Positions 37,344 through 56,401 of a stretch of 56,566 nt of DNA are shown here, one piece after another. Every line of letters starts with the position of its first letter. Positions within the stretch are counted from its first letter, which is position 1. A program made the position numbers and the translations under genes. The stretch is from Thermoanaerobaculia bacterium (lineage in GTDB: Bacteria; Acidobacteriota; Thermoanaerobaculia; Multivoradales; JAGPDF01), in assembly GCA_019911865.1 (NCBI GenBank), contig JAIOJQ010000385.1, positions 1 to 56,566 on the forward strand. The letters are read 5' to 3'. The notes under the pieces are model-generated. The model saw nothing but the letters and a program-made list of their open reading frames with translations. It searched no databases and was not told the DNA's origin.

Positions 37344-40300
37344 CGGCTGATTCCTTTCGACGGAGCGGCAATGGCACGCGCGGCCGCCGCGGCCGTGCGA
37401 CCGGCAGCCAGCGCGGCGGAGACGAACGGTTTGACCTGGGGCGCGACGAAAGTCATCGCTTTCTGAACCCCCTCGCGGGCGACGAGGCTCGCCAGCCGGA
37501 CGATCTCCTGGGCCTGACCCTGAGAGAGCCGCTCCAGAGCCCCCTGGACCCTGCGACTCGTCTGAGTGAAGTTGAGAGCGGAAAGGGCGGCGTTCGCCGC
37601 GGTGGACACCGGGCTTTGGGCGCCCGCCCCGGGGGCCTTCCCGCCGGGCGAGGGACGCGGCAGCGCCGCGCTCGGTCCTCGCGTGCCTGGAAGGGAAGGC
37701 GCGCGAGCCGGACTCGGAGCGTCCCGGGTGACACCCGGCTGCAAGGCGACCGAACGGTCGCGAGCGAGCGCGCCGAGCGCCGAGCGCGTGGCCGACAGGG
37801 AGGTGGATTTCGCCGTGGCGACGGCGCTTCGCGTCAGCCGCTCCGGATCGTCATCGAGGAGCCGCTCGGCCGCATGGAACGCGATCTGAGCCGTCGTCAG
37901 GATGCGAGCCGTCCTGGCGGCGGCAACCGCCGCCGGCGTGTACGCCTCGGCCGGAAGGTGGCGCGCTGCGCGGGCAGCCTCGGCGGCCTCAAGGTCGAAG
38001 CTCGCACCCTCGGCGCGAAGTTCGCCGAGCCGCTTCTCGAATCGCTCCGCGGCCTCGGCGGGCGCTGGACGCGCACCGAGAGAGCGGTTCTGCTCGCGCG
38101 CCAGGTCCTTGCCCGAACGCTCCAACTGCTCGCGAACCTGTTCCATCTCGACGATCCTCGAGGAGAGCCGGAGAATCTCGTCCCGGGCACCTTCCCAGGA
38201 ATCGGGAAGGGCCAAAGCCGACGTAAGAGGAGCTGCGCCAGGACGGTGCACCTCGAGCGTTGGCGCAGAAGGTCCCGGAGCAGGTGCAGCTGAGCCCACG
38301 TGGTCGAGCCGTTCCAGCGTCGGCCGAGCCGGTTGCGCAGCCCTTTCCGAGGCCTCCGGGGCTTGGCGCACGGCGGCAGGGCCTTCGCGGGCAAGCTCGG
38401 GTTCGCGCGCCTGGTGAACGACCGCAAGGGCGAGCTGGGAACCCAGATTCTGCGGGCGGTCGAGTACGACGGCCAGATCGCGCTCGCTTTTCCCGAAGAC
38501 CAGCTCGACTTGCTCGTTCGGCGTGCCGGCGAGCAGGCGCTGGATCTGGCCGGCGTAGCGGGGTCCGTCGATTTCAACCACGATCGGTCGGCCCTCGCCG
38601 AGGGCCAGGTGCTCGCCGCTGCGCGCATGGGCGACGTAGTGGTGGTCGAGCTCGAGAAGCGGCGTCGGCCCGTCCTTGGGCCCACCCTCGATCCGGATTC
38701 CGCCTCGGGGGTCGAAGCCCGCGATGCGTCCGGACTCGAGCGGCCCTCCCGGCTCGGAGCGGAACCGGACGAAGTCGCCTTGCGCAAAGCTGCGCTCGGC
38801 CGAGCGATACGTGACCATGTGGGCAGCCTCGGCGGGCGCGATCCGTTCGATCCGGACCGCGTTTCCGCCGACCCCCTGTCCGGAGGCCACGGCGGCGAGC
38901 TGCTGCCCTTCCCGGTCCACGGCGACGAGGCGGAAGGCGGACATCGACCCGCCCGGTTCGCGCCGGTAGAGCCAGTCGCCGGGGCGCCAGTGCTCGGCCC
39001 GGAGGGTCTCGGGCGAGAGGGCCGGCACTTTCTCCCGGACTTCGACCCGGACCTGCTCATCGAGGTTCAAGCGGCCGGCGCGGTGGAGATGGGCGCGGAC
39101 CGTGTCCGTGCGCTCGGCAAGCACCTGCCCGGCGCGGTCGGCGTCGAGCGAGAGGTTGGTGACGAGCAGAGCGGGCGCAGGCCCGGGAGCGGCGAGCGCT
39201 GTCGAGGTCGCGCGTACCTCGCGGTCGGAGTCGACCTCGACCACGCGGACCCGCGCAGGTGAGCCCGCAAGCGCCGCCGAGAGGGCGGCCGAAACTTGAA
39301 CGCCCGGATCGTTGGCGGTCGGGCGGCGCCAGAGCGCGGCCAGGGCCGAGCCGGCGTAGCGGCGCTCCGCGGCCGGAATCAAGCGCTCGCCGGCTGTGGC
39401 CGCCAGCAGGGCCGGCCCCCGAGCAGCGAAGGGGGAAAGCTCGGGGTGCCGCGCGGCGAAGACCACTCGCAACCCCCCGGCATGAGCGCGATCGACCAGG
39501 CCGCGAAGCTCGTGGACCGCGAGCCGCTCGGCGCCGTGGACGATGGCTACCGGCGCAACCCGCCCAGCCCCGAACGCCCAGCCGCCGCCTTCGAGGAAGT
39601 ACCGGCGCGAGGCGATCTGTCCGGCGGGAATGCCGGCCTCGAGAAGTTCGCCGCGCTGCTCGAAGCCGGTTGTCACGTGCACGGGATGCCAGCCGCGCCG
39701 CGCGAGTTCGCGGTGGAGACCCACCGCAAAGGGCGTGGCCGCGGACGCTTGCGCGCCGCCATCGCGGCTCGTGACGAACGAGAACTGATGTCGATTCTCG
39801 AGGACCTCGGCGACGGCAGCGCGATCGGCCGGATCGGCAATCGCACCGCGGAGCCGGGTTTCCAGCTCTTGCGGCCGCGCCGAGGCGGGCACGATCGGTT
39901 CGACGTCGCGGCCGCGGGCGATCTGGGCGGCCACGTAGAGCTCCTCGGCGTAGTTGTCCACGCGGGCAAGGCGCGAGCCGTCGGGCGAGAAGACGACGTC
40001 GGCCCTCCGGTGAAGCTGTTCATCGAGCGCTTCGAGCGCGACGCTTCCTCCCGTATGCACCCAGGCGCGAGTCAGCACCTCGTCGAACGCGAAGGCAGGC
40101 GAGCGCTCGGAAAGCTCGGCGAGCGAGCGCGCGATGGCCACCTCCGGATCGTTCGTCGGCCGATGGGAGCCCTCGATCTTCTGGCTCTTCAGGATGGCCT
40201 CGGCGTTCTGAACGAAGGCCTCCCGGCTCTTGCCGTAGCGCTCGAGGTACTCCGTCTCCCGAGCGAATCTGGCGAACAGTTCCGGGCTCTCGGCCTGGAC

Positions 40301-43300
40301 CCTCGCCGCCTCGGTCATCAGGTGCGGGATCGGAGGCACTCGGGGAGGCTCGGGCGGCTGGGGCGGCCGGGAAGCCCCGGAACTGCCGGGCGGCTCGCCC
40401 GGCGAACCGGGTGAGGGCGCCTGCTGCTCCACGGCCGGAAGGGCGGACGGCTCCGGGGGAGGGGCCGCCTGGCGCGCACGCTCGGGCGCGAGCTCTGCGA
40501 CCGCGAAGGCGTGGACGCGGCCGTCACCAGAGTCCCACAGGCGCAGCTGATCGCCGTGGGTCGCCCCGCCATCGAGAGCCATCAACCGATCGGTTGCCGG
40601 CGCGACGCCGGACTCGATCGGCGTGTGACCGAAGAAGACACGCTCGGACACCGGCGGCTCGCCAGCCTGCCACCACGGGACCTTCGCCCCGTCGGCTCGG
40701 GCGACATTCCGAATCGACAGGACGGTTTGCGGCTCCTGATCCTCGAACGAGCGACCCGGGGAGAGTCCCGCGTGAACGACGAGACCTTGCGGCAGGCGCA
40801 GTGCGTGCGGCAGGCGCCCGAGAAAGTCGAGATAGCTGTCGGGAACCGTGCGCGAGCCGGACTCCGCGCCGAAGCTCTCGAAAGTCGCAGCGAGACCGCT
40901 GCCGAGAAACATCCCCTCCTTCTCGCGCCCGTGAAGTGCCAGCAGCCGCTGTTCGTGATTTCCGCGAACGCCCAGGAAGCTCTCGCCGAGACTCTGGACG
41001 TAGTCGAGCACCTGCTTCGAGTCAGGCCCCCGGTCGACCAGGTCGCCGACCGAGACCAGCACATCGCCCCGGTCCGGGCGAAACTCCAGCCGCTCGAGCG
41101 CGCGCTTGAGTGTCCCGAGCTCACCGTGGACGTCACCGACTACGAGCACGCGTCGCCCCGCGAGGGCTTGGCGCGCGTCGTCGACGACCAGGCCCGCGGA
41201 AGTTGCGCTCCGCTCGACCGGAGCCACGGTCGACCGCGCCGAGGCGGGCGCCACGGGCAAGGACGCATCGAACTCGGTCAGGTCCAGCACGTCGGGGGCA
41301 TCGGCCATCCGTGCGGCTACCGGCGACCTGCCGGGTGGGCGAGCTTCTCCCTCACGGGTCTTGGCCGTTGCCTCTGGAGCAGGCTCCTCCCGAGCCCGGG
41401 CGGGTGAGTCGATGCGGCGTACCTGCCCGGCGTTGAGGGCAGCCCAAATGTGCTGGCCACTTTGGACGGAATAGGTCGAGTCGTAGCCGCCGGCGAGCAG
41501 CCGATCGCGAACGGCCATCATGGCCTCGGCGCGATGATCGTCGTTGTCGAGATCGAAACCGGGGCGGGAGCGGGCGAAGGCCGCGCCGGCGGCGTCGAGA
41601 AAGGAGGCCCCCGCGATGCGGTCTCCAGAAAGCAGGTCCCCACGCTCGCGAGCGAGAGCGACGGCGGCCGGATCCAGCGTCGCTAGGTAGTCGGCCGGGT
41701 AGCCGTGGAGGAGCGAAAACGGCCGGGCAATCGAGACCTCGAGCTCGACGACTTCCTTCGAGTGAGGCCCCGGCGATGCGGCGAACTGTTCGGCGAGTTC
41801 GCGGTGCTGCGTGAAGTTGATACCAGCGACCAGTCCGCGACGTCGTCCGTCGACGGACAGGTCATCGGCTACGGCTTGTCCTCGGTAGGAGGATCGTCCG
41901 GGGACCGGTAGTGGGACTCCGTCGGGGGATACGAAAACGGTGGCGGGTAGCCCAAGGCCTGGGACAGCGCGAGGACGCCCATCGGGCCGGTCTCTTCGAG
42001 CTTCGCTCGCAGCTCCGGGGGCCTCTGGGCGAGGTACTCCTCCCAAGTTGGAAGCGGCTTGGAATCGGGGGTCGGCGGGTTCATCGGGGCTCCTGAGTGT
42101 AGTTGAGGGGGCCGAGAGGACCTCGGTCGGGGCGGCAGGCGGCGCCGCTGGCTCGGTCCATCCGGCGAGCGGCGCGCCGACAGCGACTCTCGGAACGGCC
42201 TCGTGGGCAGAACGCCGAGTGGGCTCGGACTCGGATCGCAGCTCGAGCTCGTCACGCAGTCGGAACCGAATGGCGCGAGGATCAAGCCCTTCCGAAGCGA
42301 GCCTCTCCACGTAGTCGGCTGCGTCCCCTTTGGGCGCAAGCCAGGCAGGCGCCGTGGCAATGGATACCTTGGAGACAATGGATCCGAGGGCGCCGCCCAC
42401 GGCGGCGGCTTGCCTCGCGCCGGCCTCGTCCTTGTCGGGCCAGACGATGACCGAGGCGCCGCGCAGGAACTCCAGATTGCGCTGCTGGGGTCGGTTCGAG
42501 GCGCTGTGCGTGCCGTAGGCCTGGAGGCCGAGTGCGGCAAGGGCGTCGGCGGCCTTCTCGCCCTCGACGAGAAAGACCGGACGGGCCGGATTGAAGGCCA
42601 CCTCCGAGCGGTAAAGAGGCGCATCGGCCGCGTGGAGCTTCTCGGCCTCGGGCGTTCCGCGGCGATTGAGCGACCAGCCACCGCGAAACCAACGGACCTG
42701 CTTGGTGCCGGTTTCGTTGCCGGGCGCGTCCTTGTCCCAACGCGCCTTGTAGGCAAAGAGGTTCCCGTCTCGATCTCGAATGGCCCAGACGTGCTGCGGC
42801 GTACCGAAAGTCGGATGCCGGAGCTTGTAGGGATCCGGCCAGGCCTTCATCGGCGTCCAAGCGACGGGACTGCGCTCGACCTCGTGCCTCGAGGGTTCAC
42901 TGCGCCGGACCTCGAACGAGGGCGCGTCGCTCTTGAAGGTGTCGTAGCTGACGCCGAGAGCGCCCAGCACGCGCTCGTGGCTGCAGCCGGCGTAGCAGTG
43001 GAGTAGCGGCTTGCCATCGCCGCCGGTACCGATCGACAGACTTCGGCGGCCGCTCTTGGCGCCGTCCTTGTGGCCCGGGCAGAAGGCCTGAAACTGGTGG
43101 GAAGGGCCCGTCGGCTTGAAGCCACCCGAGTCGAGCAGGCGGCGAACCTGGTCGACCGCGTCGGGGGCGTAGACGCGCCTCGAGAGCGCGCGCGACTCGG
43201 GACTGGACGGCGAGGAAGGCCCGCTCATCGATGGAACTCCTGCAGTTGGTGGGGAAACGGGGGGCGAGGGCGCAGGCTCGCTCAGCGGCCCGGCGCTGGG

Positions 43301-46300
43301 GCTTCGCTCGTCGCCCGATCGATCGCCGGCAGCGGCTCCAGCAGCGCCTTCTTGTAGCTCGCCACCGCGAACCAACCGCCGAGCCAGCCCCCGACCATCG
43401 CCAGGATCAGCAGCAGCAGCGCCGCCGCCGCGTACTCCGCCCAGAACCTTTTGCTCGGCGCCAGAGCGATCTTGAGAGCCTGCTTGTGCTCGTTGGCCTC
43501 CTTGCGCAGGAGCGTCTGGTGCTGGAGCGCCTTGTTCAGACCGTCCTGCACGCGCTCGCGCAGCTTCGAAAACTCCGAGGTCATCGTCGGTATCGCCGCG
43601 TCCACCTTGGCGAGCTGCGCCGAGAGCGTCTGCGGCGTCTCTCCCGGATGCTCGGGCAACTCGAAGGCCGTCGCCAGCTTCTGGACCTGCTCCTCGATCC
43701 TCTGGAGGCGGGGAGCGACGGTGCCCAGGTCGTCGGTCGAACTCTCGGAGGTCATCAGCAGCCTCGCGAGTGCCTGGACGATCTCTGCCTGGAGACCCAG
43801 CGTCTCCTCCACCTGAGCCTGGGTGTGTTGGAGGAGGCCCAGAACCGCCTCCGGCGCTGCCGCCGGGGTTTCCGTGGCCACTGGTGCCGATTGGCCATGG
43901 ATCGGGACCGTCGGGAGGTGAGTCGTCTTGGCGAAGGGACCGTTCGAGCCGGACATAGCGGAGATCCTCCGGAGTCAGTGCGACAGTTGGCGAAAGCGTG
44001 GCGGCGATCCATTCGGCGCGAAGCCGTGTGTCGGTGCTCTCGAGGGCCTCGAGGCGTCCGAGAAGAAGTCCTTTCGACTCCTCGGGTCGATCGAGGGCGG
44101 GGATGTCGAGCGCGAGCATTTGCCGCACGGTGTCGACGCTTTCCATGTAGCGCGGCAGGTCGCCCGCCACGGCGGCGGCCTCGACGTTCTCGAGATTGAT
44201 CGAGCCGTAGAGAAGGCGTCGCTGGTGTTCCGTTCGCGTGAGCCCGGGAGGGACCGTGGCGCGAAGTTCGCGGTGAATCTCCCGGGCGAAGGCCAGCGTC
44301 GCCTCGGCGTTGAGCAGGTAGCGTGAGGGCACGCCGGACCGCTCCATCTGCCAGGACGCGAAGGCGGAAACCACCGGTGAGGGCAGGCGCCGAAGATCGT
44401 CGGCTCGATCCCGGTGAACGCTTGTGTACTGACCCCGAAGCGCCTCGGCAAGCGTCGTCCACGCCCGCAGGCGTTGCTCCGCCTCGCTCGCTTGCTCGAA
44501 GCGCGTCCAGGCCTGGTAGGCCAGGTGGCTCAGGCCCGGCGTCTCCTGATCCATCGCGTCGAGCGGCCGGGCGTGCGCGGCGAGCGAGGCGATCAGCTGC
44601 TCGGTCGCGGCGCGAGCGCGGCCCTCGTCGCGGACGATGCCATTGGCAAGCGGTGCCGCCGCGGCTCCCGAACTCGAGCTTGCCGCCAGAGCCATCGGAC
44701 GAAGGTGGGGCGCCTCGAACAGGGTGGCGAGCTGCTGTGGGTCGTCCGTGACGACCGCGACGTGGTACCTCGAGCGGGTCAAGTCGACGGTCGGGTTGGC
44801 CGAGGAGAGCACCTGGGCCTGTTCTCCCGTGTGGTAGGCCGCCAGGACCTCGTCCTTGGTGATGGATTGGGCCGAGTGCGAAGTGACCGAATAGCCGAAG
44901 TCGAACGTATTCAGATGCTGCGAGGAAAGCTGGACGCGGATCGGCTCGCCATGGGCTCGGCGTCGATCGAGCTCGAAGACGGCGATCTGCTCGCTGGCAC
45001 TCGCTGGGTCCGGCCGAACCTCGACGAGCGTGGCCAGGTCGCCGTTGTTGATGCTCTCGGCTCTCTCGGTCTTGCGAAACTGCACGCGGTCGCCGACGAC
45101 GAGCGTGAGCTTGGACATCTCGAGCGCGGACACCTGGCCCGACAGCTCTCGAACGGAGACCGTGGCTTCCGTGCCGTCGGGAAGCGCGAGGGTCACGCTC
45201 GCGGTGTTGGAATCGGCCCGCCGGACCTCGACATAGGAGTCCCGGCGAAGCCGAAGATCGCCGTGGCCGGTTGGAAAGTGGAGAAAGAGCGGATGCGGAT
45301 CTCGGGAGTTGTTGGCGCGAAGGTAAGCCGAGATATCGCCGGAGTCCGCTGCCGTCCAGGAGAGATCCCGCAGCCGCAAGAGTGAGATCTGACCGCGGCG
45401 TGGATCGAGCTCTCCAAGAGGCCCGAGCCGGAGCTCCCGGACGATTCCAGCGAACTCGTCGCGCGCAGCGTGCGTCGGAAAGACCACCAGGCTCTCGTCG
45501 CGCCGTTCCGGAGGGTTTGCCAGGTAGAGCGCCGCGACAGCCTCGCGCTGGACGTAGGGGTCCTGGACGACGATGAGGTTGCGGGCGGCCGTATCGGGCC
45601 GAGCGAGGCTTCGGTAGTCCTCGAGTCGCCCGGTGAGCTTCTCGCGCTTCTTGGCAACTTCGGCCGAGCCGAGCTCCGGCAGGGCGCAGAGCGCCTCTCG
45701 GGTGCGCTCGATCCCCCGAGCCGCGACAAAGGCCAAAAGTTCGCGGCGGCGGGTCACGAGAGCGGAGTCCGATCGAGAGGTCGCGCGCAGCTCGTAGAGG
45801 GCCCTGCCGGGCCGCTGGTGCGTGGCAAACGCAGCCACGCGCAGCGCATTGGCATCGGCCGGGGCGCGTCGACTCGTGGGATCGGGCGCGTGCTGGCGAT
45901 TGAGCTCCTGGATCCGGTAGATCGGCACGCCGAAAGCCGAGAGCTGCTGGGGGATCGAGCCCGCGGGGACTGCGTGATGTTGCTGGCGATCGCCCACCGC
46001 GTAGACCTTGGCGCCGGCGTGAAGGGCCATGCGGGCGAATCGATTCCAGTCCTCCTGACCGGTCTGGCCGACCTCGTCGAGAATCCAGAGCTCCCGCGAG
46101 GCCAGATCCTTCGGCAGTGGCCGCCGGATGAAGCCCTGTACCGTCTCGGCTCCGACGCCGTACTCGCCGAGAGATTCGACCGCGCGCCGGGTTGGCGCAA
46201 AGAAGCGGACCGTCCAGCCCTCGCGCCGGGCGAGCGCCTGCAGCGCTTCGAGTGATCGAGACTTTCCGGCGCCGGGGCCGGCCTCGAGCATGGCGATCGA

Positions 46301-49063
46301 ACTCGTGCCCCGCAGCGCCTGGCCGAGGGCGAGCAGCTGCTGGTCGGTCAGGTTCTTGAGGGCGGCCGGTTCGGGACTTGCGGCCTGCTGCTCCTGGTAC
46401 CAGCGGCGAAGGGATTCAAGGTCCCGCACGGTCGCGGGCGCGATTGCCTGCGGCCGGGCCATGAGCTGCGTCATGAGGCTGTAGTTGTCGGTTTCAGCCG
46501 CGCGCGCCCCTTGCGTGGTCAGTTGGTCTTTCGAGTGCGGCAGCAGGCCATGGAGCCGGCGCGCGATCGCCGCGTCGACCGCGCGCGTCGTGGCGCGGAT
46601 CGCCTCGTCCTGGCGAAGGCCCGAAACTCGCAAGAGCCGAATCAAGGCGGTCCTCTGGAGCTCGCCGCGGGAGAAGACGGAGTTGCGCTCGGCCAGGCGG
46701 GCTACGGCGTACTCGACGCTCGCTTTGGCCGTCGGCGGCAAAGGCCGCCTCTCGTCCGGGCTGGCGGGCGAGGAACGCAGTTGCGACGCGCTCGATCCTC
46801 GCGTCCCGGGAGGCGGAGCCAGGGTGACCCCGGGCGTATCGAGTCCGAATGTCTGCCGAGCCTCGTCCGCAAACGCTCCAGGGTGGGAGGCAGCCAGCGC
46901 CGTGAGGGCGTCGGATTGAATCTGCCGGGCATGAGCTTCGAGCAAGATGCCGTGAGGTGGCTGCGTGATCGAGGCGAGCAGGATCTCGGCAGCCGGAGCG
47001 GATGCCGCGAACTGCTCGGGACTGCGGACCGCGAGAGTGCCTCGCGCCGAGTCGGCCACCAGCAGAAGCGCCTGACCGCGGCCCTCCGATCGGGCAAGGG
47101 AAGAGACACGCCTGGCCACTCGATCGAGAAAGGAAGGGTGCTCGACGGCGCGCACGGCCTTGGCGCGAAGGCCGGTGCCGGAGGGCAGCACGATGTGGTC
47201 GGCGCTCTCGACCGCGAGCAAGGCGGTCGCCTCGGCCCGAGGGGGTGCGGGTTCGCTCGGATCCTCGCCGGCGATGACGAGGGTGCCGCGACGGTCCGGG
47301 TCGAGCGCCAGGCTTCGCTCGCGGGCGGCGCGGGAGAGCGAGAGCGCATCGAATCCGAGCTGACGCCCCTTCTGTTGCCACTGCGGGATCAGGGCTTCCC
47401 AGCGGATGCGCCCGGGTTTGGCCTCGCGGGTCGTCAAGACGGCGTGGTCGCGCAGCTGCTGGCGGGTCCGTGGGGTGGTCCTGGACGGATCCAAGCCGGC
47501 CGCGCGCATGCGCTCGGCTTGCGCCGCGGTGATCTTGGTCGCACGTGAGGAGAAGGCTCGAGCGACGCTCTCTGGAACATCGGCGAGGCGAGCGACGAGC
47601 GTTTGGGGGTCGATCTCGACGCGGTAGCCCAGCGCGCGAAGCTCGGAGGCAAGCTGCGCGGAGTAGAGCTGCTCGTAGTGGCGAACGTGCTGCCGGATGA
47701 GAAGCGGATTGAGCGGACCGTAACCTCGACCCCGACGGGCGAGGTTGAGCACGAAGGCGTGGGTATGCAGCTGCGGATCGAGTGCCCGGGAAAAGCCGTG
47801 GTCGAACCGGGCTACCAGGAACTCTCCGGTCGCGACGAAGGCACGTCTCGACTCGGTGCCGGCGTCGCGCTCCATCGCCGCCAGAGCGGTGAGTACGGCT
47901 CGCCGATGGGCTTCGAGGATGCGGGAGTCCTCACCGAGCAGCGCCTGGACGGAGACCGACTTGTCCGGGGCGAAGATGTAGTCGAAGCCGGCGCGCCGGG
48001 TCTCGGGCGTCTCGCCGCGCGCAGGTTGCGCGAGTGTCCGAGCTCCGTCGGGGCTTCGCCCTTCTGCGAGGTTCTCGAAGGCTCGCGCCTCGATGGGCTC
48101 GTCGGACGAAAGGCCGAGGCGAGCCGCGAGCTTGCCGGTCCACAACCCCTCCCCAGAATCGAGCATGAGGCCCGTGCTCTCGCCCGGAACGAACGGCGGA
48201 GGCGAGCCGGGAGTTCGGAAGACGGGAGCCAGGCCCCGAAGCTGGGCGTCCGCAAGGACGCCGCCGAGCTCGGACGGAGCGAGCTCGAGCCTGCGCACTT
48301 CGAGGGCGCCGAAGCTGGCGCTCGATGGGTCGGCTGCGGCTTGAAGCAAGAGCGCCGCGCCCGGCTGCAGGATGAGCTCGCGGCCGCCCCCGAGAGGGAT
48401 GGCAAACCCCGTGAGACCCGACTCGGCGAGAACGCCGGGCTCGGCCAGCGGCGAGCTGGCTTGAAGGCGGGTGAGAAGAGGTGCGAGTGCGTCCCGGGGC
48501 TCACCCGATTGCGGGACCGGAAGATGGCGAGCCTCCGGGTCGAACTCCGGATAGAGCGCCTGGATTCGCGAGGAGAAGGCCGCGAGCGTTTCCGGAGTCG
48601 CCGGAATCCACCAGCGCCGAGTTTCGAAACCTCTGGACTGCTCGTAGAGGATTCCACCCGAGGTGAGCCGAAGGACTTCCTCGCCGCCGATTCTCACGGA
48701 AGGACCCGAGGCTTGTCCCGGCCCAGTGCTCCCGATCCCGAGGTAAACGCCGTGCGCCTGAAGGTGGGCTGTGATCTGGCGCAGCTCGGCAAGGGCCACC
48801 GCTTCGCCCGGAGTCAGAGACTCGGGAGAGCGACCGACCGGGAGGAGGTTGGGGGAGTCGGGGTCGGCTGGGCCCGGACGGCCCGCACGAACCCAGCCGG
48901 GCCGCGCCTCTTCGGCGAGGGCCGCGTCGACCGCCGCGGTCGCGGCGGCGACATCTTGTCGGAGCGAGGGCGCCACCTCGGCGGCGCCCTGGGCGAGCTG
49001 CTCGCGGTAGTAGCTCTTGGCGTGACCCGCGGAGAGGCCGCCCGTTCCGTGCACAACGCCCAT
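37340..49063 (-). CDS. Stop-free 3,907-codon ORF: MOBF relaxase + RecD-like helicase + Zn/Toprim primase + unknown domain + PPP metallophosphatase + helicase-like tail. Probably composite (see findings).
   Basis: A single frame with no stop over 11,724 nt. The recognisable domains are listed as separate features. Two internal segments (43282..43956, 41869..42084) have about 50% third-position GC in this frame, against about 80-85% elsewhere. Confidence 0.6.
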   Translation of the reverse strand: MGVVHGTGGLSAGHAKSYYREQLAQGAAEVAPSLRQDVAAATAAVDAALAEEARPGWVRAGRPGPADPDSPNLLPVGRSPESLTPGEAVALAELRQITAHLQAHGVYLGIGSTGPGQASGPSVRIGGEEVLRLTSGGILYEQSRGFETRRWWIPATPETLAAFSSRIQALYPEFDPEARHLPVPQSGEPRDALAPLLTRLQASSPLAEPGVLAESGLTGFAIPLGGGRELILQPGAALLLQAAADPSSASFGALEVRRLELAPSELGGVLADAQLRGLAPVFRTPGSPPPFVPGESTGLMLDSGEGLWTGKLAARLGLSSDEPIEARAFENLAEGRSPDGARTLAQPARGETPETRRAGFDYIFAPDKSVSVQALLGEDSRILEAHRRAVLTALAAMERDAGTESRRAFVATGEFLVARFDHGFSRALDPQLHTHAFVLNLARRGRGYGPLNPLLIRQHVRHYEQLYSAQLASELRALGYRVEIDPQTLVARLADVPESVARAFSSRATKITAAQAERMRAAGLDPSRTTPRTRQQLRDHAVLTTREAKPGRIRWEALIPQWQQKGRQLGFDALSLSRAARERSLALDPDRRGTLVIAGEDPSEPAPPRAEATALLAVESADHIVLPSGTGLRAKAVRAVEHPSFLDRVARRVSSLARSEGRGQALLLVADSARGTLAVRSPEQFAASAPAAEILLASITQPPHGILLEAHARQIQSDALTALAASHPGAFADEARQTFGLDTPGVTLAPPPGTRGSSASQLRSSPASPDERRPLPPTAKASVEYAVARLAERNSVFSRGELQRTALIRLLRVSGLRQDEAIRATTRAVDAAIARRLHGLLPHSKDQLTTQGARAAETDNYSLMTQLMARPQAIAPATVRDLESLRRWYQEQQAASPEPAALKNLTDQQLLALGQALRGTSSIAMLEAGPGAGKSRSLEALQALARREGWTVRFFAPTRRAVESLGEYGVGAETVQGFIRRPLPKDLASRELWILDEVGQTGQEDWNRFARMALHAGAKVYAVGDRQQHHAVPAGSIPQQLSAFGVPIYRIQELNRQHAPDPTSRRAPADANALRVAAFATHQRPGRALYELRATSRSDSALVTRRRELLAFVAARGIERTREALCALPELGSAEVAKKREKLTGRLEDYRSLARPDTAARNLIVVQDPYVQREAVAALYLANPPERRDESLVVFPTHAARDEFAGIVRELRLGPLGELDPRRGQISLLRLRDLSWTAADSGDISAYLRANNSRDPHPLFLHFPTGHGDLRLRRDSYVEVRRADSNTASVTLALPDGTEATVSVRELSGQVSALEMSKLTLVVGDRVQFRKTERAESINNGDLATLVEVRPDPASASEQIAVFELDRRRAHGEPIRVQLSSQHLNTFDFGYSVTSHSAQSITKDEVLAAYHTGEQAQVLSSANPTVDLTRSRYHVAVVTDDPQQLATLFEAPHLRPMALAASSSSGAAAAPLANGIVRDEGRARAATEQLIASLAAHARPLDAMDQETPGLSHLAYQAWTRFEQASEAEQRLRAWTTLAEALRGQYTSVHRDRADDLRRLPSPVVSAFASWQMERSGVPSRYLLNAEATLAFAREIHRELRATVPPGLTRTEHQRRLLYGSINLENVEAAAVAGDLPRYMESVDTVRQMLALDIPALDRPEESKGLLLGRLEALESTDTRLRAEWIAATLSPTVALTPEDLRYVRLERSLRQDDSPPDGPDPWPIGTSGHGNPGGSAGGGSGPPPTHPGSGGGDAGSPGRDRPGTREAADDLREFDRRPGHRRSPPPEDRGAGPEAGDGLRVARASGRDAADALGAARQGGRGDTDDDLGVFEAARARAGRSEQGAPAPDAPAQGGQRAQAGSQDRSGAEQKVLGGVRGGGAAAADPGDGRGLARRLVRGGELQEGAAGAAAGDRSGDERSPSAGPLSEPAPSPPVSPPTAGVPSMSGPSSPSSPESRALSRRVYAPDAVDQVRRLLDSGGFKPTGPSHQFQAFCPGHKDGAKSGRRSLSIGTGGDGKPLLHCYAGCSHERVLGALGVSYDTFKSDAPSFEVRRSEPSRHEVERSPVAWTPMKAWPDPYKLRHPTFGTPQHVWAIRDRDGNLFAYKARWDKDAPGNETGTKQVRWFRGGWSLNRRGTPEAEKLHAADAPLYRSEVAFNPARPVFLVEGEKAADALAALGLQAYGTHSASNRPQQRNLEFLRGASVIVWPDKDEAGARQAAAVGGALGSIVSKVSIATAPAWLAPKGDAADYVERLASEGLDPRAIRFRLRDELELRSESEPTRRSAHEAVPRVAVGAPLAGWTEPAAPPAAPTEVLSAPSTTLRSPDEPADPRFQAASNLGGVPRPEAPGAASEARRDRPDGRPRAVPGLGLPATVFVSPDGVPLPVPGRSSYRGQAVADDLSVDGRRRGLVAGINFTQHRELAEQFAASPGPHSKEVVELEVSIARPFSLLHGYPADYLATLDPAAVALARERGDLLSGDRIAGASFLDAAGAAFARSRPGFDLDNDDHRAEAMMAVRDRLLAGGYDSTYSVQSGQHIWAALNAGQVRRIDSPARAREEPAPEATAKTREGEARPPGRSPVAARMADAPDVLDLTEFDASLPVAPASARSTVAPVERSATSAGLVVDDARQALAGRRVLVVGDVHGELGTLKRALERLEFRPDRGDVLVSVGDLVDRGPDSKQVLDYVQSLGESFLGVRGNHEQRLLALHGREKEGMFLGSGLAATFESFGAESGSRTVPDSYLDFLGRLPHALRLPQGLVVHAGLSPGRSFEDQEPQTVLSIRNVARADGAKVPWWQAGEPPVSERVFFGHTPIESGVAPATDRLMALDGGATHGDQLRLWDSGDGRVHAFAVAELAPERARQAAPPPEPSALPAVEQQAPSPGSPGEPPGSSGASRPPQPPEPPRVPPIPHLMTEAARVQAESPELFARFARETEYLERYGKSREAFVQNAEAILKSQKIEGSHRPTNDPEVAIARSLAELSERSPAFAFDEVLTRAWVHTGGSVALEALDEQLHRRADVVFSPDGSRLARVDNYAEELYVAAQIARGRDVEPIVPASARPQELETRLRGAIADPADRAAVAEVLENRHQFSFVTSRDGGAQASAATPFAVGLHRELARRGWHPVHVTTGFEQRGELLEAGIPAGQIASRRYFLEGGGWAFGAGRVAPVAIVHGAERLAVHELRGLVDRAHAGGLRVVFAARHPELSPFAARGPALLAATAGERLIPAAERRYAGSALAALWRRPTANDPGVQVSAALSAALAGSPARVRVVEVDSDREVRATSTALAAPGPAPALLVTNLSLDADRAGQVLAERTDTVRAHLHRAGRLNLDEQVRVEVREKVPALSPETLRAEHWRPGDWLYRREPGGSMSAFRLVAVDREGQQLAAVASGQGVGGNAVRIERIAPAEAAHMVTYRSAERSFAQGDFVRFRSEPGGPLESGRIAGFDPRGGIRIEGGPKDGPTPLLELDHHYVAHARSGEHLALGEGRPIVVEIDGPRYAGQIQRLLAGTPNEQVELVFGKSERDLAVVLDRPQNLGSQLALAVVHQAREPELAREGPAAVRQAPEASERAAQPARPTLERLDHVGSAAPAPGPSAPTLEVHRPGAAPLTSALALPDSWEGARDEILRLSSRIVEMEQVREQLERSGKDLAREQNRSLGARPAPAEAAERFEKRLGELRAEGASFDLEAAEAARAARHLPAEAYTPAAVAAARTARILTTAQIAFHAAERLLDDDPERLTRSAVATAKSTSLSATRSALGALARDRSVALQPGVTRDAPSPARAPSLPGTRGPSAALPRPSPGGKAPGAGAQSPVSTAANAALSALNFTQTSRRVQGALERLSQGQAQEIVRLASLVAREGVQKAMTFVAPQVKPFVSAALAAGRTAAAAARAIAAPSKGISR
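40500..41165 (-). other. Domain: PPP-family (calcineurin-like/ApaH-PrpE-like) metallophosphoesterase
   Basis: RRVLVVGDVHGELGTL, LVSVGDLVDRGPDS, LGVRGNHEQRL, GLVVHAGL, VFFGHTP. Confidence 0.8.
41869..42084 (-). CDS. Alternative-frame (+1) small ORF nested in the giant ORF
   Basis: AGGAG-N5-ATG at 42084. 71 aa: MNPPTPDSKPLPTWEEYLAQRPPELRAKLEETGPMGVLALSQALGYPPPF... Third-position GC is 83% here and 53% in the giant frame (hand count). Pro-rich, so less certain. Confidence 0.4.
   Translation of the reverse strand: MNPPTPDSKPLPTWEEYLAQRPPELRAKLEETGPMGVLALSQALGYPPPFSYPPTESHYRSPDDPPTEDKP
42090..43228 (-). other. Module: DNA primase (CHC2-like zinc motif + Toprim) with its own SD and ATG at 43228
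   Basis: AGGAG-N8-ATG at 43228 (MSGPSSPSS...). FQAFCPGHKDG...LLHCYAGCSHERVLGALG; VFLVEGEKAADALAALG; VIVWPDKDEAGARQ; PKGDAADYV. Confidence 0.8.
43282..43956 (-). CDS. Alternative-frame (+1) gene nested in the giant ORF: coiled-coil protein with C-terminal TM helix
   Basis: GGAGGA-N8-ATG at 43956. 224 aa of normal composition (…LQRIEEQVQKLATAFELPEHP…KEANEHKQALKIAL…WAEYAAAALLLLILAMVGGWLGGWFAV). Hand-counted third-position GC is about 85% in this frame and about 50% in the giant frame. Confidence 0.65.
   Translation of the reverse strand: MSGSNGPFAKTTHLPTVPIHGQSAPVATETPAAAPEAVLGLLQHTQAQVEETLGLQAEIVQALARLLMTSESSTDDLGTVAPRLQRIEEQVQKLATAFELPEHPGETPQTLSAQLAKVDAAIPTMTSEFSKLRERVQDGLNKALQHQTLLRKEANEHKQALKIALAPSKRFWAEYAAAALLLLILAMVGGWLGGWFAVASYKKALLEPLPAIDRATSEAPAPGR
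44700..46400 (-). other. Domain: RecD/TraA-like P-loop helicase
   Basis: IAMLEAGPGAGKSRSLEAL (46262..46290), LWILDEVGQ, VYAVGDRQQH, FDFGYSVTSHSAQSITKDEV (about 44832..44910). Confidence 0.8.
47450..49063 (-). other. Domain: TrwC/TraI-type (MOBF) relaxase
   Basis: AKSYYREQ near the N-terminus; GLWTGKLAARLGL; RAGFDYIFAPDKSVSVQAL; ARFDHGFSRALDPQLHTHAFVLN (compare TrwC FRHETSRERDPQLHTHAVILN). About 280 aa are inserted between the YY segment and W.GK..LGL. Confidence 0.85.
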
Positions 49064-49080
49064 AACGTTACGTTATGCGA
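49062..49080. promoter_or_regulatory. ATAAC-N5-GTTATGCGA palindromic site (copy 2 of 2), overlapping the relaxase start codon
   Basis: ATAACgttacGTTATGCGA, followed by TAACGC. On the minus strand the GTTATG contains the ATG at 49063. Confidence 0.45.
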
Positions 49081-49145: not shown

Positions 49146-49781
49146 TCAGCCGCGGGTGGGGGAGTTGCCCACGTACTTCTCGGCGACGATGCGCTCGGCA
49201 TCGGCAGCGAGCTGGGTGATCGTTTCCATGGGGATGGCCTTGCCCCCGAGCCCGTGGGCCTGAAGGGCGAGGGTAAGGAAGGTCGTCTGGGTCTCGATGG
49301 CTCGCAACACCTGCGCGAGGCTGCCGCCACCTTGCTCGAGAGCCCGCCGCAGAGTCAGGGTGACCCAGTCTTCGAGCAGCAGGTTGAGCCGGCTCGCCTC
49401 GGCATGAGCCTCGCGACGCAGCGAGTCCGGGAGCATCAGGATCCAGTGCTCGTGGTACTCGTTGAGGACCCGCTGAACGTAACGGCTCAGCGAGACGCCC
49501 GCCGACCGGGCCGCGGCCTGAAACGGTTCGAGGTCGGCCTTCGGGACGCGGATGAGGTCGGTGTCGGGCGCGGCGGCGCGCGCGATGCGCAGCAGATCCT
49601 GGATGTGCTGCGAGACCGGTCGATGCATTGCCTCGGCCTCGGCTGCGAGCTCCTGGAAATGATCGGCGTCGAGGTAGAGGCTGACCCGGTTCTTGCTGTC
49701 CGACCAGGCGTGCCGGGGCCGTTTCGGACCGGAACTTGCGGCCGGCAAACTGGACGCTGGCGGTTTCTTTCGCGAAGCCAT
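49146..49781 (-). CDS. Tandem ribbon-helix-helix protein (relaxosome accessory/MobC-TrwA-like position)
   Basis: ORF trimmed to ATG 49781 (MASRKKPPASS...). There are two RHH-like units: RVSLYLDADHFQELAAEAEAMHRPVSQHIQDLL and LIRVPKADLEPFQAAARSAGVSLSRYVQRVL. It lies directly upstream of the relaxase. Confidence 0.6.
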   Translation of the reverse strand: MASRKKPPASSLPAASSGPKRPRHAWSDSKNRVSLYLDADHFQELAAEAEAMHRPVSQHIQDLLRIARAAAPDTDLIRVPKADLEPFQAAARSAGVSLSRYVQRVLNEYHEHWILMLPDSLRREAHAEASRLNLLLEDWVTLTLRRALEQGGGSLAQVLRAIETQTTFLTLALQAHGLGGKAIPMETITQLAADAERIVAEKYVGNSPTRG

Positions 49782-49817
49782 GGGTGCCCTCTCAGACGCG
49801 GTTTCAAGAATTCTTGT

Positions 49818-49848
49818 GTTATCTGGCGTTACCTTAACGCAGTGTAAC
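49818..49848. promoter_or_regulatory. Array of four GTTAT/GTTAC/TTAAC/GTAAC half-sites at ~10-11 bp spacing in an AT-rich island (oriT/operator candidate)
   Basis: GTTATctggcGTTACcTTAACgcagtGTAAC lies within the low-GC patch 49801..49870, upstream of the RHH gene and between the transfer genes and the SSB block. Confidence 0.4.
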
Positions 49849-49984
49849 ACAGCGCGCTAAGAACCGTGGGCAGAAAAGGTTGCAGGCTCACAGGGGCCGG
49901 GCGAACGGATGGGGTCCGAGCGTTAGGTATGGGCCCTTTTCCCGCCCCTCGATCGGGCAGGGAGAAGGGGTGCTTCGGGAAGCG

Positions 49985-50698
49985 CTACCGGAGCCGATCG
50001 AACGCGGCTTCGGCGGCTTTGGCGGCGCGGTGAGCGTCCATCTCGGCGGCCTTGAGGCTCTCGACTTCTTCGGCGGGGGCTCCGGCGGCCTCGGCATCCT
50101 TGCGGGCGGCGTGGGCGGTGGCGACTTCCTCGCGGCAGGCGCGGACCCACTGCTCGGCGGCCTGCTTCTCGGCGGCGCGGCGGGCGATCTCGCGGCGCTC
50201 GGCCTCGGCCGTGGTGTCGGGCATCTTGGGCGAGCTGGGCGCGTACTCTCCGGGGCCGTCGTAGCTCTTGGCGCGCGGTCCCTGCTCGTTGCGGTCGGTA
50301 GCCTTGAAAGCCGCGGCGGCGAAGATCAGCCGGTGGGCGCCGACGTTCCACTGCGGGCGGGTGTGCTTCTTGCCGGCCTTGTCGGTGTAGGTCCGAACCT
50401 CGCGCGCGGCGGTGATCTCGACGAGGTCGCCGCGCTCGAGGTCGTGGGGCAGGTACTCGGCGGCGCAGTTGAGAAAGACGGGCGGCGCGTCGGGGTTCTC
50501 CTTCGAGCGCTGGACGAGGGTAAACAGGACGAGGTCCGGGCGCTCCTCGGCGATCTCCTGCACGTAAGCGCCGAGCTCCTCGTCGAAACGCTCGACGCGG
50601 CGGCCGGCGCGGCGGATGCTGCGGAAGGGGGAGCGTTCCTCCTTCTTCTGGATCAAGACTCCGGCGAGTTTCACGGTGGCGGTCGGGTTCGTGTTCAT
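49985..50698 (-). CDS. Divergent OB-fold SSB-like protein with Ala/Glu-rich helical tail
   Basis: Trimmed to ATG 50698, with GAGGAAG upstream. TVKLAGVLIQKKEERSPF...LVLFTLVQRSKE...FLNCAAEYLPHDLERGDLVEITAAREVRTYTDKAGKKHTRPQWNVGAHRLIF follows the SSB OB-fold pattern. Confidence 0.6.
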   Translation of the reverse strand: MNTNPTATVKLAGVLIQKKEERSPFRSIRRAGRRVERFDEELGAYVQEIAEERPDLVLFTLVQRSKENPDAPPVFLNCAAEYLPHDLERGDLVEITAAREVRTYTDKAGKKHTRPQWNVGAHRLIFAAAAFKATDRNEQGPRAKSYDGPGEYAPSSPKMPDTTAEAERREIARRAAEKQAAEQWVRACREEVATAHAARKDAEAAGAPAEEVESLKAAEMDAHRAAKAAEAAFDRLR

Positions 50699-50712
50699 GG
50701 CTTGCTTCCTCT

Positions 50713-51026
50713 CTCTCGGTTCCGGCTGGCTGGAGTGCCGCCGGTTCAAAAATCCTTTTCCCCTCACGTCCTCTTTTCTGCGTCTTCGGCTTCCCGTCTG
50801 TCCGTCCTGCCCGTCTTCGCCCGCCGAGAGGCGGGCAGGGCGGACGGACGGGAAGCTGAGCCGGAGGGCGGCGAGCCATGAAGATCAGATTGCGGAGCGT
50901 CTGCCACGAGGCGTGCCAGTACGTCTCATCGCTGGCGCGACTCGTGGGCGGAGCGGCCTGCCTTTCGGCGAGCCGCCCGGAGGCGCCCCCAGCAGAAAAG
51001 AGGACGTGAGGGGAAAAAACCGAGAG
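50713..51026. promoter_or_regulatory. ~310-nt nested inverted-repeat structure upstream of the SSB-like gene (ssDNA promoter/ssi-like or 5'-UTR structure candidate)
   Basis: The outer 9-bp arms are 50713..50721 and 51018..51026. Perfect 26-bp arms are 50756..50781 (ttttcccctcacgtcctcttttctgc) and 50992..51017. An inner 68-nt hairpin (50789..50856) has a 19-bp stem with two G-T pairs, plus a GCCCGCC-gaga-GGCGGGC tip. Confidence 0.55.
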
Positions 51027-51382
51027 GATTCCTTCGTCCTTCAGGTCTTGGCCGTTGCAGGAGAGATCGCAGCGCAGTGGCGGGGAGCGCGCCCTGGGGC
51101 CGCCTCCGATCGGACCCGAGGGGAGACCGCGGAGGACGCGAGCGGCGGAGCTTGCCGAGCCGCGGAAGGCAAGCTCCGGCCCCCGGGTGGACCCCCCCGG
51201 CTACTGGAGCGGAGCGCCCAGCGGCAGCGCGAGCAGCCCGACGTCCGGAAGGCCTCCTTCTGCGACGGCCCGGCAGAAGGTGAGCGACACGCTACCGGCG
51301 CACGCCGAGACTCCGGCGCGAGAGCAACTGCCAAAGCGCTCGGGGTGTCAGCCGGAAAGTGCTGTGCGCTGCGAGGACGCCT

Positions 51383-52386: not shown

Positions 52387-52510
52387 CCTCGACGGCCTCC
52401 TCTCGGCCTGCCGCGCGAGACCCTTTCTCGCGGGGGCCGCGCCGCGCACCCCCGCGAGAAAGGGGAGAGAGAAGGGCAGCTGGAGTGGCTCAGCTCAGTC
52501 CGCCGGCGCG

Positions 52511-52828
52511 CTAGGGCGCCGGGACGCGCAGCTCGCAGATCGGCAGCAAGACGTACCCGGAGCGAACGCGTTGGCCCGTGTCGCGCACGAGTCCGCTGGC
52601 GAGCAACGCTGCGAGCATTCCGGTGTTCTCCGAGTAGTCCTTGATCAGGACGTGACCCGGCTCGAGGGCGAAGTCCGGCAGGGCCACCGTCGCGCAGGCG
52701 ACGGGCTCGCCATCCTCGAGGCTGCGCAGCCGAATGGCGATCTGGCCAGGCGCCTCGCGGTAGCGCGCGAGCTCAGCCGAGCATGGGAGGCCGCAGAAGA
52801 CGACGGGAGTCGGCACGGCGGATTCCAT
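52511..52828 (-). CDS. Small conserved hypothetical protein (DUF4313-like, from memory)
   Basis: 105 aa from ATG 52828: MESAVPTPVVFCGLPCSAELARYREAPGQIAIRLRSLEDGEPVACATVALPDFALEPGHVLIKDYSENTGMLAALLASGLV. The IKDYSEN.G motif is recalled from plasmid leading-region proteins. Confidence 0.55.
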   Translation of the reverse strand: MESAVPTPVVFCGLPCSAELARYREAPGQIAIRLRSLEDGEPVACATVALPDFALEPGHVLIKDYSENTGMLAALLASGLVRDTGQRVRSGYVLLPICELRVPAP

Positions 52829-52946
52829 GGGAAATCTCCTCTTTTCTGGGCGCTTCTGCCTGCGCCCGATGCTTGGCGAGGGGCGCAGGAAGACGCGCCC
52901 CGGGCGCCCGGCTTTCCTCGGGCTCGACAAGAGAAACCTCTTCGAA

Positions 52947-54745: not shown

Positions 54746-55180
54746 TCAGGCCGCGACCTCGACCTGCTCGTCGAACTCCTCGAAGCCCTCGACCTCGCCC
54801 GCGTCGGCCTCGACCGGCGTCGGCGCGCCTTGCGGGCGAGGACCGAGCACCTGGAAGGCCTGGCCGGCCAGCTGGACCTGCTTGGCGTTGAACTCGACGC
54901 CGTTCGCGTCGATCGCCTTGAGCGACCGGTAGCTGAGCGCCGCATCCAGGGCGACGAGGCGCCCCTTGGTCACCAGCGCGCAGACGCGCTCGGCCGAACG
55001 ACCGAAGAAGGCCACGTCGTGGAAGGCCGTGCGCTCCTGGCGCACGCCCGCCTTGTCCTTGAAGACGGTGTTGGTCGCCACCGTCAGGTGCGCGAGCTTC
55101 GTGCCGTTACCGAGCACCTTGAGCTCGGGGGTGCGCACCGCGTTGCCGATCAGGGTGACCTGGTTGTTGATCTGGGCCAT
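54746..55180 (-). CDS. ssb: Single-stranded DNA-binding protein
   Basis: MAQINNQVTLIGNAVRTPELKVLGNGTKLAHLTVATNTVFKDKAGVRQERTAFHDVAFFGRSAERV...KGRLVALDAALSYRS, with an acidic tail (EVEGFEEFDEQVEVAA). Confidence 0.9.
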   Translation of the reverse strand: MAQINNQVTLIGNAVRTPELKVLGNGTKLAHLTVATNTVFKDKAGVRQERTAFHDVAFFGRSAERVCALVTKGRLVALDAALSYRSLKAIDANGVEFNAKQVQLAGQAFQVLGPRPQGAPTPVEADAGEVEGFEEFDEQVEVAA

Positions 55181-55336: not shown

Positions 55337-55651
55337 TCACGCGAAGGCGTGAACGAGATAGCTGCTGGCGAGCTGCTCGGCCGGGTCGTCGTCGGGCGCG
55401 CAGCGCAGCTTCTGTGCCAGCGTCTCGAGGGCCGCGCGGGCCGGGAGCGCCGCGAACAGCAGCGCCGCCACGCCGAGCTTCTCGCGCAGGGCGGAGCTGG
55501 CGAGATCGCGTTCCCACTCGGGCAGCGTGCTCTTGGCGACCGCGTCCTCGAAGTCGTGCTCGAGCTCCTCGAGCTTGGCGAGGAACGGAGCGTCGAGCGA
55601 AGCACCGGAGAAGTCGGTCGTGTCGATGTGCAGGTCGTCGAACTGGCGCAT
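55337..55651 (-). CDS. Hypothetical acidic helical protein
   Basis: 104 aa from ATG 55651, with GAGAGGG upstream: MRQFDDLHIDTTDFSGASLDAPFLAKLEELEHDFEDAVAKSTLPEWERDL... The rest of track ORF 55337..56527 is junk-like. Confidence 0.6.
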   Translation of the reverse strand: MRQFDDLHIDTTDFSGASLDAPFLAKLEELEHDFEDAVAKSTLPEWERDLASSALREKLGVAALLFAALPARAALETLAQKLRCAPDDDPAEQLASSYLVHAFA

Positions 55652-55680
55652 GCTGCCCTCTCTCTTCTCTATCTCGATCC

Positions 55681-55732
55681 GGTTCATCCGAATCGCGCCT
55701 CGCCCCCGGGCAGGGCGCGATTCGAGTGAACC
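55681..55732. other. 19-bp imperfect inverted repeat 30 nt upstream of the 55651 start
   Basis: ggttcatccgaatcgcgcc / ggcgcgattcgagtgaacc: 17 of 19 positions pair, with a 14-nt loop. Confidence 0.5.
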
Positions 55733-56401
55733 GGGTCTTCTTGGACCTCCTGTGTCCTTGGATGCGAGACCCGTAAGGGGCAACGCCCGTGCGAGCCGAA
55801 GGCGAGAAGCCTCTTCTCGAAGCGCTCTCCCGACCCGCGGAGGGAAAGCGCGGCGGCGAGGCTTTCGGAGGGTCCTTCGCGAACGAGAGACATCCGAGTG
55901 CGCAGGATCACCTGCCGCGTGCGCAGCTGCGGCGCGGGCGGCGCCGGCAAAGCCGGAGGGCAGGCTCTGAATGAGACCTATCGGGAGATTCGAGAAGCGC
56001 GGCCTCGTAGCGACCCACGCTGACCAGAAGCAAGGGCGACGCCTTTTCAGGCGCCAGGCCCGCCCCGCCCCTGAGGAAGGGTCTTGGCCTTGGATGAGGA
56101 TGGGTATTTGCGGGGCGGACCCGCCCCTGGCAGGTGCGGATGGGCGTTGAGAGGCGGGGGAACCTCGAATTGGGCCAAGGCGGATCAGGAGCGGCGGAGA
56201 AGTAGGGCCAGAAGGCGAAATCTGTCCTCGGACGAACACCTTCGGGAAGCCCGAGAACTCTACTCGTTCTGACCTCTCTGCTCGTTGGATTATGGCGTTG
56301 CTTGAGGAGTAGCCGAACGTGAAAGGCTCCCCAAGGCGCCACCAGGAGGTGGTCCCGCGCACGTTCGACCTCTTTTTGGGCAAGCTAATCGGACCGCGAC
56401 G

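Follow-up and report, generated by a model that had tools for sequence, protein, structure and literature searches.

Does the long hairpin that stands directly upstream of a conjugation gene serve to start RNA synthesis on a DNA strand that has just entered a recipient? This question is raised by a 56,566-nt stretch of a Thermoanaerobaculia bacterium (Acidobacteriota; assembly GCA_019911865.1, contig JAIOJQ010000385.1, positions 1 to 56,566), the whole of which we refer to as the window. In it, a 314-nt nested hairpin (50713–51026, + strand) lies beside the start of ssbL, an orphan gene of 237 amino acids that is read from the − strand (49985–50698; G+C content at third codon positions of about 0.91) and is supported by its translation and by one cluster of homologues. 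The initial annotation, made from the letters of the sequence, proposed a promoter or priming site active on single-stranded DNA (ssDNA), similar to the Frpo and single-strand initiation (ssi) elements of plasmids. The structure and its non-coding state hold up, and conservation, strand and position fit the proposal; homology to Frpo and −35/−10 boxes were not found. We tentatively favour, at somewhat less than even confidence, the reading that the hairpin is a single-strand initiation element on the incoming strand, working in the manner of Frpo or of a single-strand origin (sso) and serving ssbL transcription, priming or both.

The main stem of the hairpin, P1, has two 26-nt arms (50756–50781 and 50992–51017) that are complementary at 100% of positions, as first described. 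The P1 26-mer is unique within the window, and two or more matches were reached in 0 of 100 shuffles. In the minimum-free-energy (MFE) fold of the + strand, P1 is continued outwards by a 9-bp stem, P0, formed by the 5′ arm CTCTCGGTT (50713–50721) and the 3′ arm AACCGAGAG (51018–51026). This outer stem had been described as including the Shine–Dalgarno (SD) region of ssbL, which depends on the register: the MFE register ends 2 nt before the SD core GAGG (50708–50711), whereas the register of the two-sequence consensus fold (50707–50713 with 51022–51028) overlaps the complement of the SD and covers GAGG. A gap of 14 nt separates the hairpin base from the ATG of ssbL. Between the 5′ arms of P0 and P1, a one-sided bulge of 34 nt (50722–50755) has no partner on the 3′ side. 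The bulge holds a small hairpin (50722–50744) and an unpaired A/T-rich run, TTCAAAAATCC (50745–50755), which reads GGTCAAAATCC in a diverged relative, L011.

Two further domains are enclosed by P1. Hairpin A (50786–50859) has 31-nt arms (50786–50816 and 50829–50859) and spans 74 nt rather than the 68 nt given at first. Its apex can adopt two alternative registers, and the number of non-Watson–Crick oppositions accordingly ranges from two to four instead of being fixed at two; their assignment as G–T pairs was correct, with four of four being G–T on the + strand. The central domain (50861–50985) forms hairpins B, C (50904–50947) and D (50948–50985) in the MFE fold and a single irregular rod in the consensus fold, in which GGA–GGA and GA–GA internal loops are conserved; it also contains runs of 21–29 nt that are invariant between the window and L011. 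On the 3′ side, a conserved flank (51027–51052, +) ends the conserved block. A separate observation concerns the P1 arm: its 12-mer CAGAAAAGAGGA (50770–50781 and 50992–51003) recurs at 52837–52848, the SD region of a 105-amino-acid gene with its start at 52828, and the P1 arm resembles a copied ribosome-binding tract.

The stability of this structure is exceptional for the window. Folding of the + strand as ssDNA, which had been set as a check, gave −123.1 kcal/mol for 50700–51040 (MFE fold; z-score of −13.9), and the − strand gave −114.7 kcal/mol (z of −8.8). When the whole 56.5 kb was scanned with a 300-nt sliding DNA fold, 50751–51050 emerged as the most stable segment on both strands, with GC-corrected z-scores of −8.7 on the + strand and −6.4 on the − strand. 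The same scan served as a positive control on the F plasmid, where it recovered Frpo1 and Frpo2 as the top outliers of the transferred strand (T-strand) at a z of about −2.6.

The two strands do not fold equally well. The + strand, which is antisense to ssbL, is favoured in both loci (−123.9 versus −117.1 kcal/mol in the window and −131.1 versus −118.7 kcal/mol in L011), and it holds more G–T pairs than the − strand, with counts of 7 versus 2 and 7 versus 1. No C–A 1 × 1 mismatches were found on the + strand. The four G–T oppositions of hairpin A become C–A on the sense strand, and so do both internal mismatches of the L011 P1 stem, which are T–G on the + strand. This agrees with the early remark that the wobble positions are compatible with a folded single strand: in both homologues the non-Watson–Crick pairs are G–T on the + strand. 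Using RNA parameters, the consensus energy was −182 kcal/mol for the + strand and −136 kcal/mol for the sense strand. Strand asymmetry in the F-plasmid controls ran in the same direction. Elsewhere in the window, the largest strand difference is at 49801–50450, which covers ssbL coding sequence and the predicted transfer origin (oriT); there the + strand folds better than the − strand by 21–27 kcal/mol per 300 nt, reflecting a G+T-rich + strand.

Conservation was assessed against L011, a JGI metagenome contig and the sole diverged relative found, and covariation rests on these two sequences. Gene order in L011 matches that of the window: the hairpin is followed by ssbL, by the gene for a ribbon-helix-helix (RHH)-type accessory protein in the TrwA position (211 amino acids, 49146–49781, − strand; Pfam RHH_1 E = 0.0024) and by a giant MOBF relaxase-helicase with primase and metallophosphatase domains (3907 amino acids, 37340–49063, − strand; Pfam TrwC E = 2e-53, AAA_30 and Metallophos). 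Protein identities are 68–69% for ssbL, 82% for the RHH protein and 72% for the relaxase N terminus. From 50699 to about 51052 the element is identical to L011 at 301 of 343 positions (87.8%), which is the outcome, for one relative, of the proposed check for conservation in related elements. Third codon positions of the ssbL, RHH and relaxase genes reach only 52–66% and the ssbL–RHH spacer 56%, so the element is no less constrained than codon positions 1 and 2 of its neighbouring genes. Upstream of 51052 identity falls to 49%. The comparison indicates that the hairpin element is under purifying selection.

The changes that did occur leave the stems intact. Substitutions and indels concentrate in loops, and the invariant runs lie partly in junctions. 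The consensus fold in the + orientation comprises 111 pairs, none of which is broken in either sequence; in 6 pairs both partners differ, and in about 16 a wobble accommodates a change of one partner. Within hairpin A there are one T–A to C–G double change, switches from wobble to Watson–Crick pairs, and a one-base insertion in both arms by which an extra pair is gained. Such stem-preserving changes suggest selection on the fold, at a strength short of statistical proof for a pair of sequences.

Wider searches returned few relatives. Further ssbL homologues were not found among 5.8 billion proteins and 1.84 billion representatives, in which the gene forms one cluster, and no related loci were found in genomes or viral contigs. 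Scans for the arm pattern gave 0 matches in 185,579 species genomes and one chance match each in viral contigs and metagenomes, and blastn of the element against PLSDB plasmids gave no match. Look-ups of the exact proteins retrieved nothing but clonal copies, in which the spacer is unchanged; the window was matched to contig WBUA01000001.1 of assembly GCA_009026165.1. At least 20 contigs (among them L001–L010 and L016–L021), drawn from several public sequencing runs that look unrelated, carry the locus with 100% identity; either the element is widespread or clonal, or its host is. A comparable hairpin was not found in three distant MOBF loci (L022–L024), which is uninformative because their leading regions are organized differently.

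The whole region was thought at the outset to lack a convincing open reading frame (ORF), and we agree: codon-position GC periodicity was not found across 50700–51380, and the ORFs that cross the region are broken in L011. Three candidates were rejected as genes or gene extensions. A 43-amino-acid ORF (50878–51009, + strand) is frameshifted in L011, an in-frame GTG extension of ssbL meets a stop there, and a 318-amino-acid out-of-frame ORF on the − strand is likewise interrupted. Additional hairpins reported farther along do exist, namely a 10-bp stem at 51147–51156 and 51168–51177 and a hairpin CCTTCTGC...GCAGAAGG at about 51257–51279. We keep both out of the element, because they lie beyond 51052, where conservation with L011 ends.

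Which strand enters the recipient depends on the position of the nick site, nic. The spacer between ssbL and the RHH gene is poorly conserved save for a few blocks, one of which is a 19-nt stretch on the + strand that is invariant in L011, GCGTTAGGTATGGGCCCTT. It contains GCGTTAGGTAT/GGGCCC (49920–49931, + strand; slashes mark the nick), a match to the pattern GCGT-N3-GTNT that is common to the MOBF cores of R388 (GCGTATTGTCT/ATAGC) and F (GCGTGGGGTGT/GGTGC), both of which we checked in sequence records; a GTGT/GTCT rule has been given for this core (PMC4176350). By itself the pattern is not rare, with 7 matches in the window versus 5.7 expected. What is specific is the geometry: the match precedes the RHH start by 149 nt and lies on the antisense strand of the transfer genes. 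In R388, nic has the same relative strand and precedes the gene in the trwA position by 156 nt; in two distant MOBF loci, L022 and L024, the pattern occurs on that strand too, at 144 nt and 192 nt, respectively, before the first transfer gene. We therefore predict nic between 49930 and 49931 on the + strand. From this prediction it follows that the + strand would be transferred, with ssbL the first leading-region gene to enter, and that the hairpin, 783 nt along the + strand from nic, counts as part of the leading region. Across the hairpin, then, the strand expected to be transferred is the + strand, which also serves as template for ssbL and for all other genes called between 49985 and 55651. 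In the F plasmid, too, the nic core is on the strand that templates the leading genes. Small inverted repeats, GTGTTA..TAACAC and CGTTA..TAACG, occur near 49817–49850, in the A/T-richer stretch that separates the nic core from the RHH gene; the corresponding place in L011 is occupied by another small repeat.

On the initiation reading, the + strand, still single-stranded after entry, would fold into long duplex stems, and RNA synthesis would begin on the fold and proceed through ssbL towards nic. It would yield ssbL mRNA early, prime synthesis of the complementary strand, or do both. The stable stems may also slow the synthesis that makes the segment double-stranded, an effect recently reported for one ssDNA promoter of F (bioRxiv 10.64898/2026.01.09.698686). 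In sense transcripts that read through the element, the same pairing would cover the ssbL SD; translational silencing of such transcripts is possible and compatible with a role at the DNA level. We infer RNA polymerase as the acting enzyme, together with every step of this activity. A more specific version strikes us as improbable: a single-strand promoter that dispenses with −35/−10 elements, in which the 26-bp duplex stands beside a permanently open 34-nt bubble on the template side that carries the only A/T-rich run, and RNA polymerase or a relaxase-tethered primase would load as on a natural bubble or fork-junction template, the same pairing silencing ssbL in donor read-through transcripts. 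Such a promoter would be a switch for the first incoming gene in a high-GC lineage for which no ssDNA promoter has been described.

The function of Frpo elements and their behaviour as roadblocks have been described (PMC11541004, PMC9849209, PMC12672017, bioRxiv 10.64898/2026.01.09.698686). The element of the window resembles F Frpo1 and Frpo2, and the ssi of the IncI1 plasmids ColIb-P9 and pESBL, in being a non-coding T-strand stem-loop of about 300 nt that immediately precedes an ssb-type gene of the leading region. By way of the predicted nic, the transferred strand is also the gene template; the stem-loop is long and very stable as ssDNA; and, as in Frpo and ssi, the T-strand folds better than its complement and is an outlier in folding energy. 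Under the same folding, F Frpo1 and Frpo2 are T-strand hairpins of about 330 nt whose base is some 46 nt from the downstream start codon. Unlike Frpo, which is one long imperfect rod, the structure here branches, is closed by a perfect 26-bp stem and has the 34-nt one-sided bulge, and it is a far stronger outlier (z of −8.7 versus about −2.6). Its host element differs as well, with 68% G+C and no more than a distant relationship to any sequenced plasmid. A second comparison is with the ssoA, ssoU and ssoT origins of rolling-circle plasmids and Sso1 of ICEBs1, folded non-coding regions that act in one orientation and only as ssDNA, where RNA polymerase makes a primer, and that are also used after conjugative transfer. 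The hairpin is similarly a highly folded, orientation-specific non-coding region; unlike the sso, it is in a window with no evident rolling-circle replicon, and sso are not placed as promoters of downstream genes. This comparison with the sso, whose ssoA type has the signatures RSB and CS-6, is by description. The kind of element is known, as ssDNA-folded initiation signals of leading regions; this one is non-homologous, differently built and found in a very distant, high-GC MOBF element.

Several findings weigh against the reading as an initiation element. Similarity to F Frpo1 and Frpo2 was not found, the best blastn match having E = 0.47; Frpo similarity has been defined by a BLAST E ≤ 1e-6 (PMC11541004). 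No −35/−10 site with at least 9 of 12 matches to TTGACA/TATAAT, which may not be the sigma rules of this host, was present in or near the stems. That scan bears out the first impression by eye that no clean hexamers are present, and the proposed check for paired −35/−10 elements within the fold came back negative for the stems. One 8/12 match in the element is not conserved, a score to be read with the caveat that a genuine F Frpo also reaches only 8/12. TANNNT is absent from both strands of the element in both homologues. With neither sequence similarity nor −35/−10 hexamers, we do not assign the element to Frpo. The strand preference is also less distinctive than it first appears: across the window the + strand has an average folding advantage of 2.9 kcal per 300 nt (s.d. 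of 5.2), which places the 8.7 kcal per 300 nt of the hairpin about 1 s.d. from the general bias, and G+T richness or mutational bias may therefore lie behind the wobble polarity. Covariation between only two independent sequences is thin, the position of nic comes from prediction, and the primase domain of the relaxase offers another way in which the same fold may be used.

That last possibility is the main rival and a serious alternative, although we judge it rather unlikely: the hairpin may be a primase-dependent ssi, with the relaxase-fused primase, arriving on the 5′ end of the T-strand, recognizing the fold 0.78 kb away in cis and laying a primer for the complementary strand, so that ssbL expression would follow double-strand conversion. 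Matches to DNA primase families fall in the middle of the relaxase (phrog_239 E = 1.9e-18, phrog_6088 E = 8.3e-18 and NF005477 E = 9.5e-14), and the invariant 21–29-nt runs, including unpaired junctions, suggest sequence-specific recognition by a protein. A primase site would also explain the missing promoter hexamers, and T-strand polarity and leading-region position fit it equally well. It does not explain the tight juxtaposition to the ssbL SD and ATG, since such a site could lie away from any gene start, whereas this hairpin overlaps the SD tract at its base. Pfam calls no primase domain in the 3907-amino-acid relaxase. Known primase ssi sites are about 40–150 nt long, a size that the 314-nt branched fold exceeds. 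In RSF1010 and R1162, the MobA-linked primase acts at ssiA and ssiB, hairpins of about 40 nt on opposite strands of oriV. The present locus resembles that arrangement in combining a relaxase–primase fusion, whose delivery to the recipient we infer, with a folded ssDNA site near oriT. It differs in that the primase is of a different type and in that, instead of short paired oriV hairpins, one 314-nt fold stands ahead of a gene, a fold for which the window holds no paralogue; ssiA, ssiB and the other reference ssi were compared by description only.

The remaining explanations account for less of the evidence. A role in RNA, which we consider unlikely, could take the form of a sense 5′ untranslated or intercistronic structure that hides the ssbL SD, an RNase III target, a vapBC terminator, or a cis-antisense RNA of + polarity that represses ssbL, as FinP acts on traJ. 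The sense strand does fold strongly (−114.7 kcal/mol, z of −8.8) with its SD tract paired, a T5 run follows P1 on that strand (GGATTTTTGAA), and G–U-compatible polarity suits an RNA of + polarity as well as ssDNA. Against the sense form, both homologues have C–A at the non-Watson–Crick positions, and the consensus energy is less favourable by 46 kcal/mol; for the 5′ structure that would sequester the ribosome-binding site, raised as an alternative at the outset, the polarity of the wobble pairs speaks against sense RNA as the main target of selection. Against the antisense form, the + strand has no promoter-like site upstream and no T-run after the fold. Rfam 15 gave no family at gathering score, only sub-threshold look-alikes (miRNA precursors, and mraW at 37 versus 50 bits), the terminator scan raised no flag, and conservation follows the downstream module rather than the genes upstream of the element, which differ in L011. 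We regard it as very unlikely that the hairpin is instead a part of oriT, in which it would be a recognition site for relaxase or accessory protein and a termination hairpin, nic would lie about 22 nt to its 3′ side at GGTCT/TGG (about 51048), and hairpin and ssbL would be transferred last. The motif in question, CAGGTCT/TGGCC (about 51042–51052, + strand), shares GTCT with the nic of R388, has been kept in L011 and sits where the conserved block ends, and MOBF oriTs carry an inverted repeat 5′ of nic (PMC4176350). This motif nevertheless lacks the GCGT part of the core, whereas a full match with R388-like geometry, repeated in two distant MOBF loci, is available at 49920–49930; likeness to the R388 oriT, in relaxase family, in the presence of an RHH accessory gene and in a nic core on the antisense strand of the transfer genes some 150 nt ahead of the accessory gene, belongs to that site and not to the hairpin. 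The stem ends 22 nt from the motif versus 8 nt in R388, the 314-nt branched repeat is unlike known MOBF IR2 elements, and two working nics 1.1 kb apart would be expected to delete the segment between them. In the consensus fold the motif pairs weakly with the start-codon region of ssbL through many wobble pairs, and it could be a chance match. Least credible of all is a selfish or neutral palindrome, a miniature inverted-repeat transposable element or insertion-sequence remnant of no use to its host element. The perfect 26-bp terminal-like repeats around about 210 nt invite this idea; we rejected it on finding a single copy in the window, none in the species genomes and only the unrelated chance matches in viral contigs and metagenomes, no target-site duplication, and a syntenic position under stronger constraint than the flanking coding DNA.

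The surrounding genes complete the picture of a distant conjugative element. The description of ssbL as an SSB-like gene finds slight backing, with a Pfam SSB match at E = 0.078, a PDB SSB match at E = 0.45 and an AlphaFold pLDDT of 53. The nearest matches to the relaxase N terminus have at most 38% identity. The type IV coupling protein gene, also on the − strand, shows at most 37% identity to plasmid proteins and about 35% to those of sphingomonad plasmids. In the relaxase, an SYY motif is at residues 17–19 and the Pfam TrwC match begins at residue 305, which suggests an insertion of about 280 amino acids within the relaxase domain; a palindrome, CATAACGT-T-ACGTTATG (49061–49077), overlaps its start codon. 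Upstream of the hairpin are vapBC, several small ORFs and a true SSB gene (54746–55180), all on the − strand. A second strong hairpin (55676–55737; 30-nt arms, z of about −6 on both strands) stands some 25 nt ahead of a 104-amino-acid gene (55337–55651, − strand), which is followed by the true SSB gene. Smaller perfect or near-perfect hairpins (52421–52464 and 52848–52900) lie 20–35 nt upstream of two more small leading-region genes. They have no clear strand polarity.

The experimentally supported ssDNA promoters in the literature that we surveyed are all from enterobacterial IncF and IncI plasmids and were recognized by homology or by sigma-70 boxes. A non-homologous initiation element at this position in a very distant, high-GC MOBF element would suggest that starting RNA on the folded incoming strand is a general solution in conjugation that can be built without canonical boxes; if so, surveys based on homology or boxes undercount such elements. 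Predicted nic, first leading gene and fold all lie within 1.2 kb, which makes this a directly testable case, and the relaxase–primase fusion allows priming by RNA polymerase and by primase to be separated experimentally.

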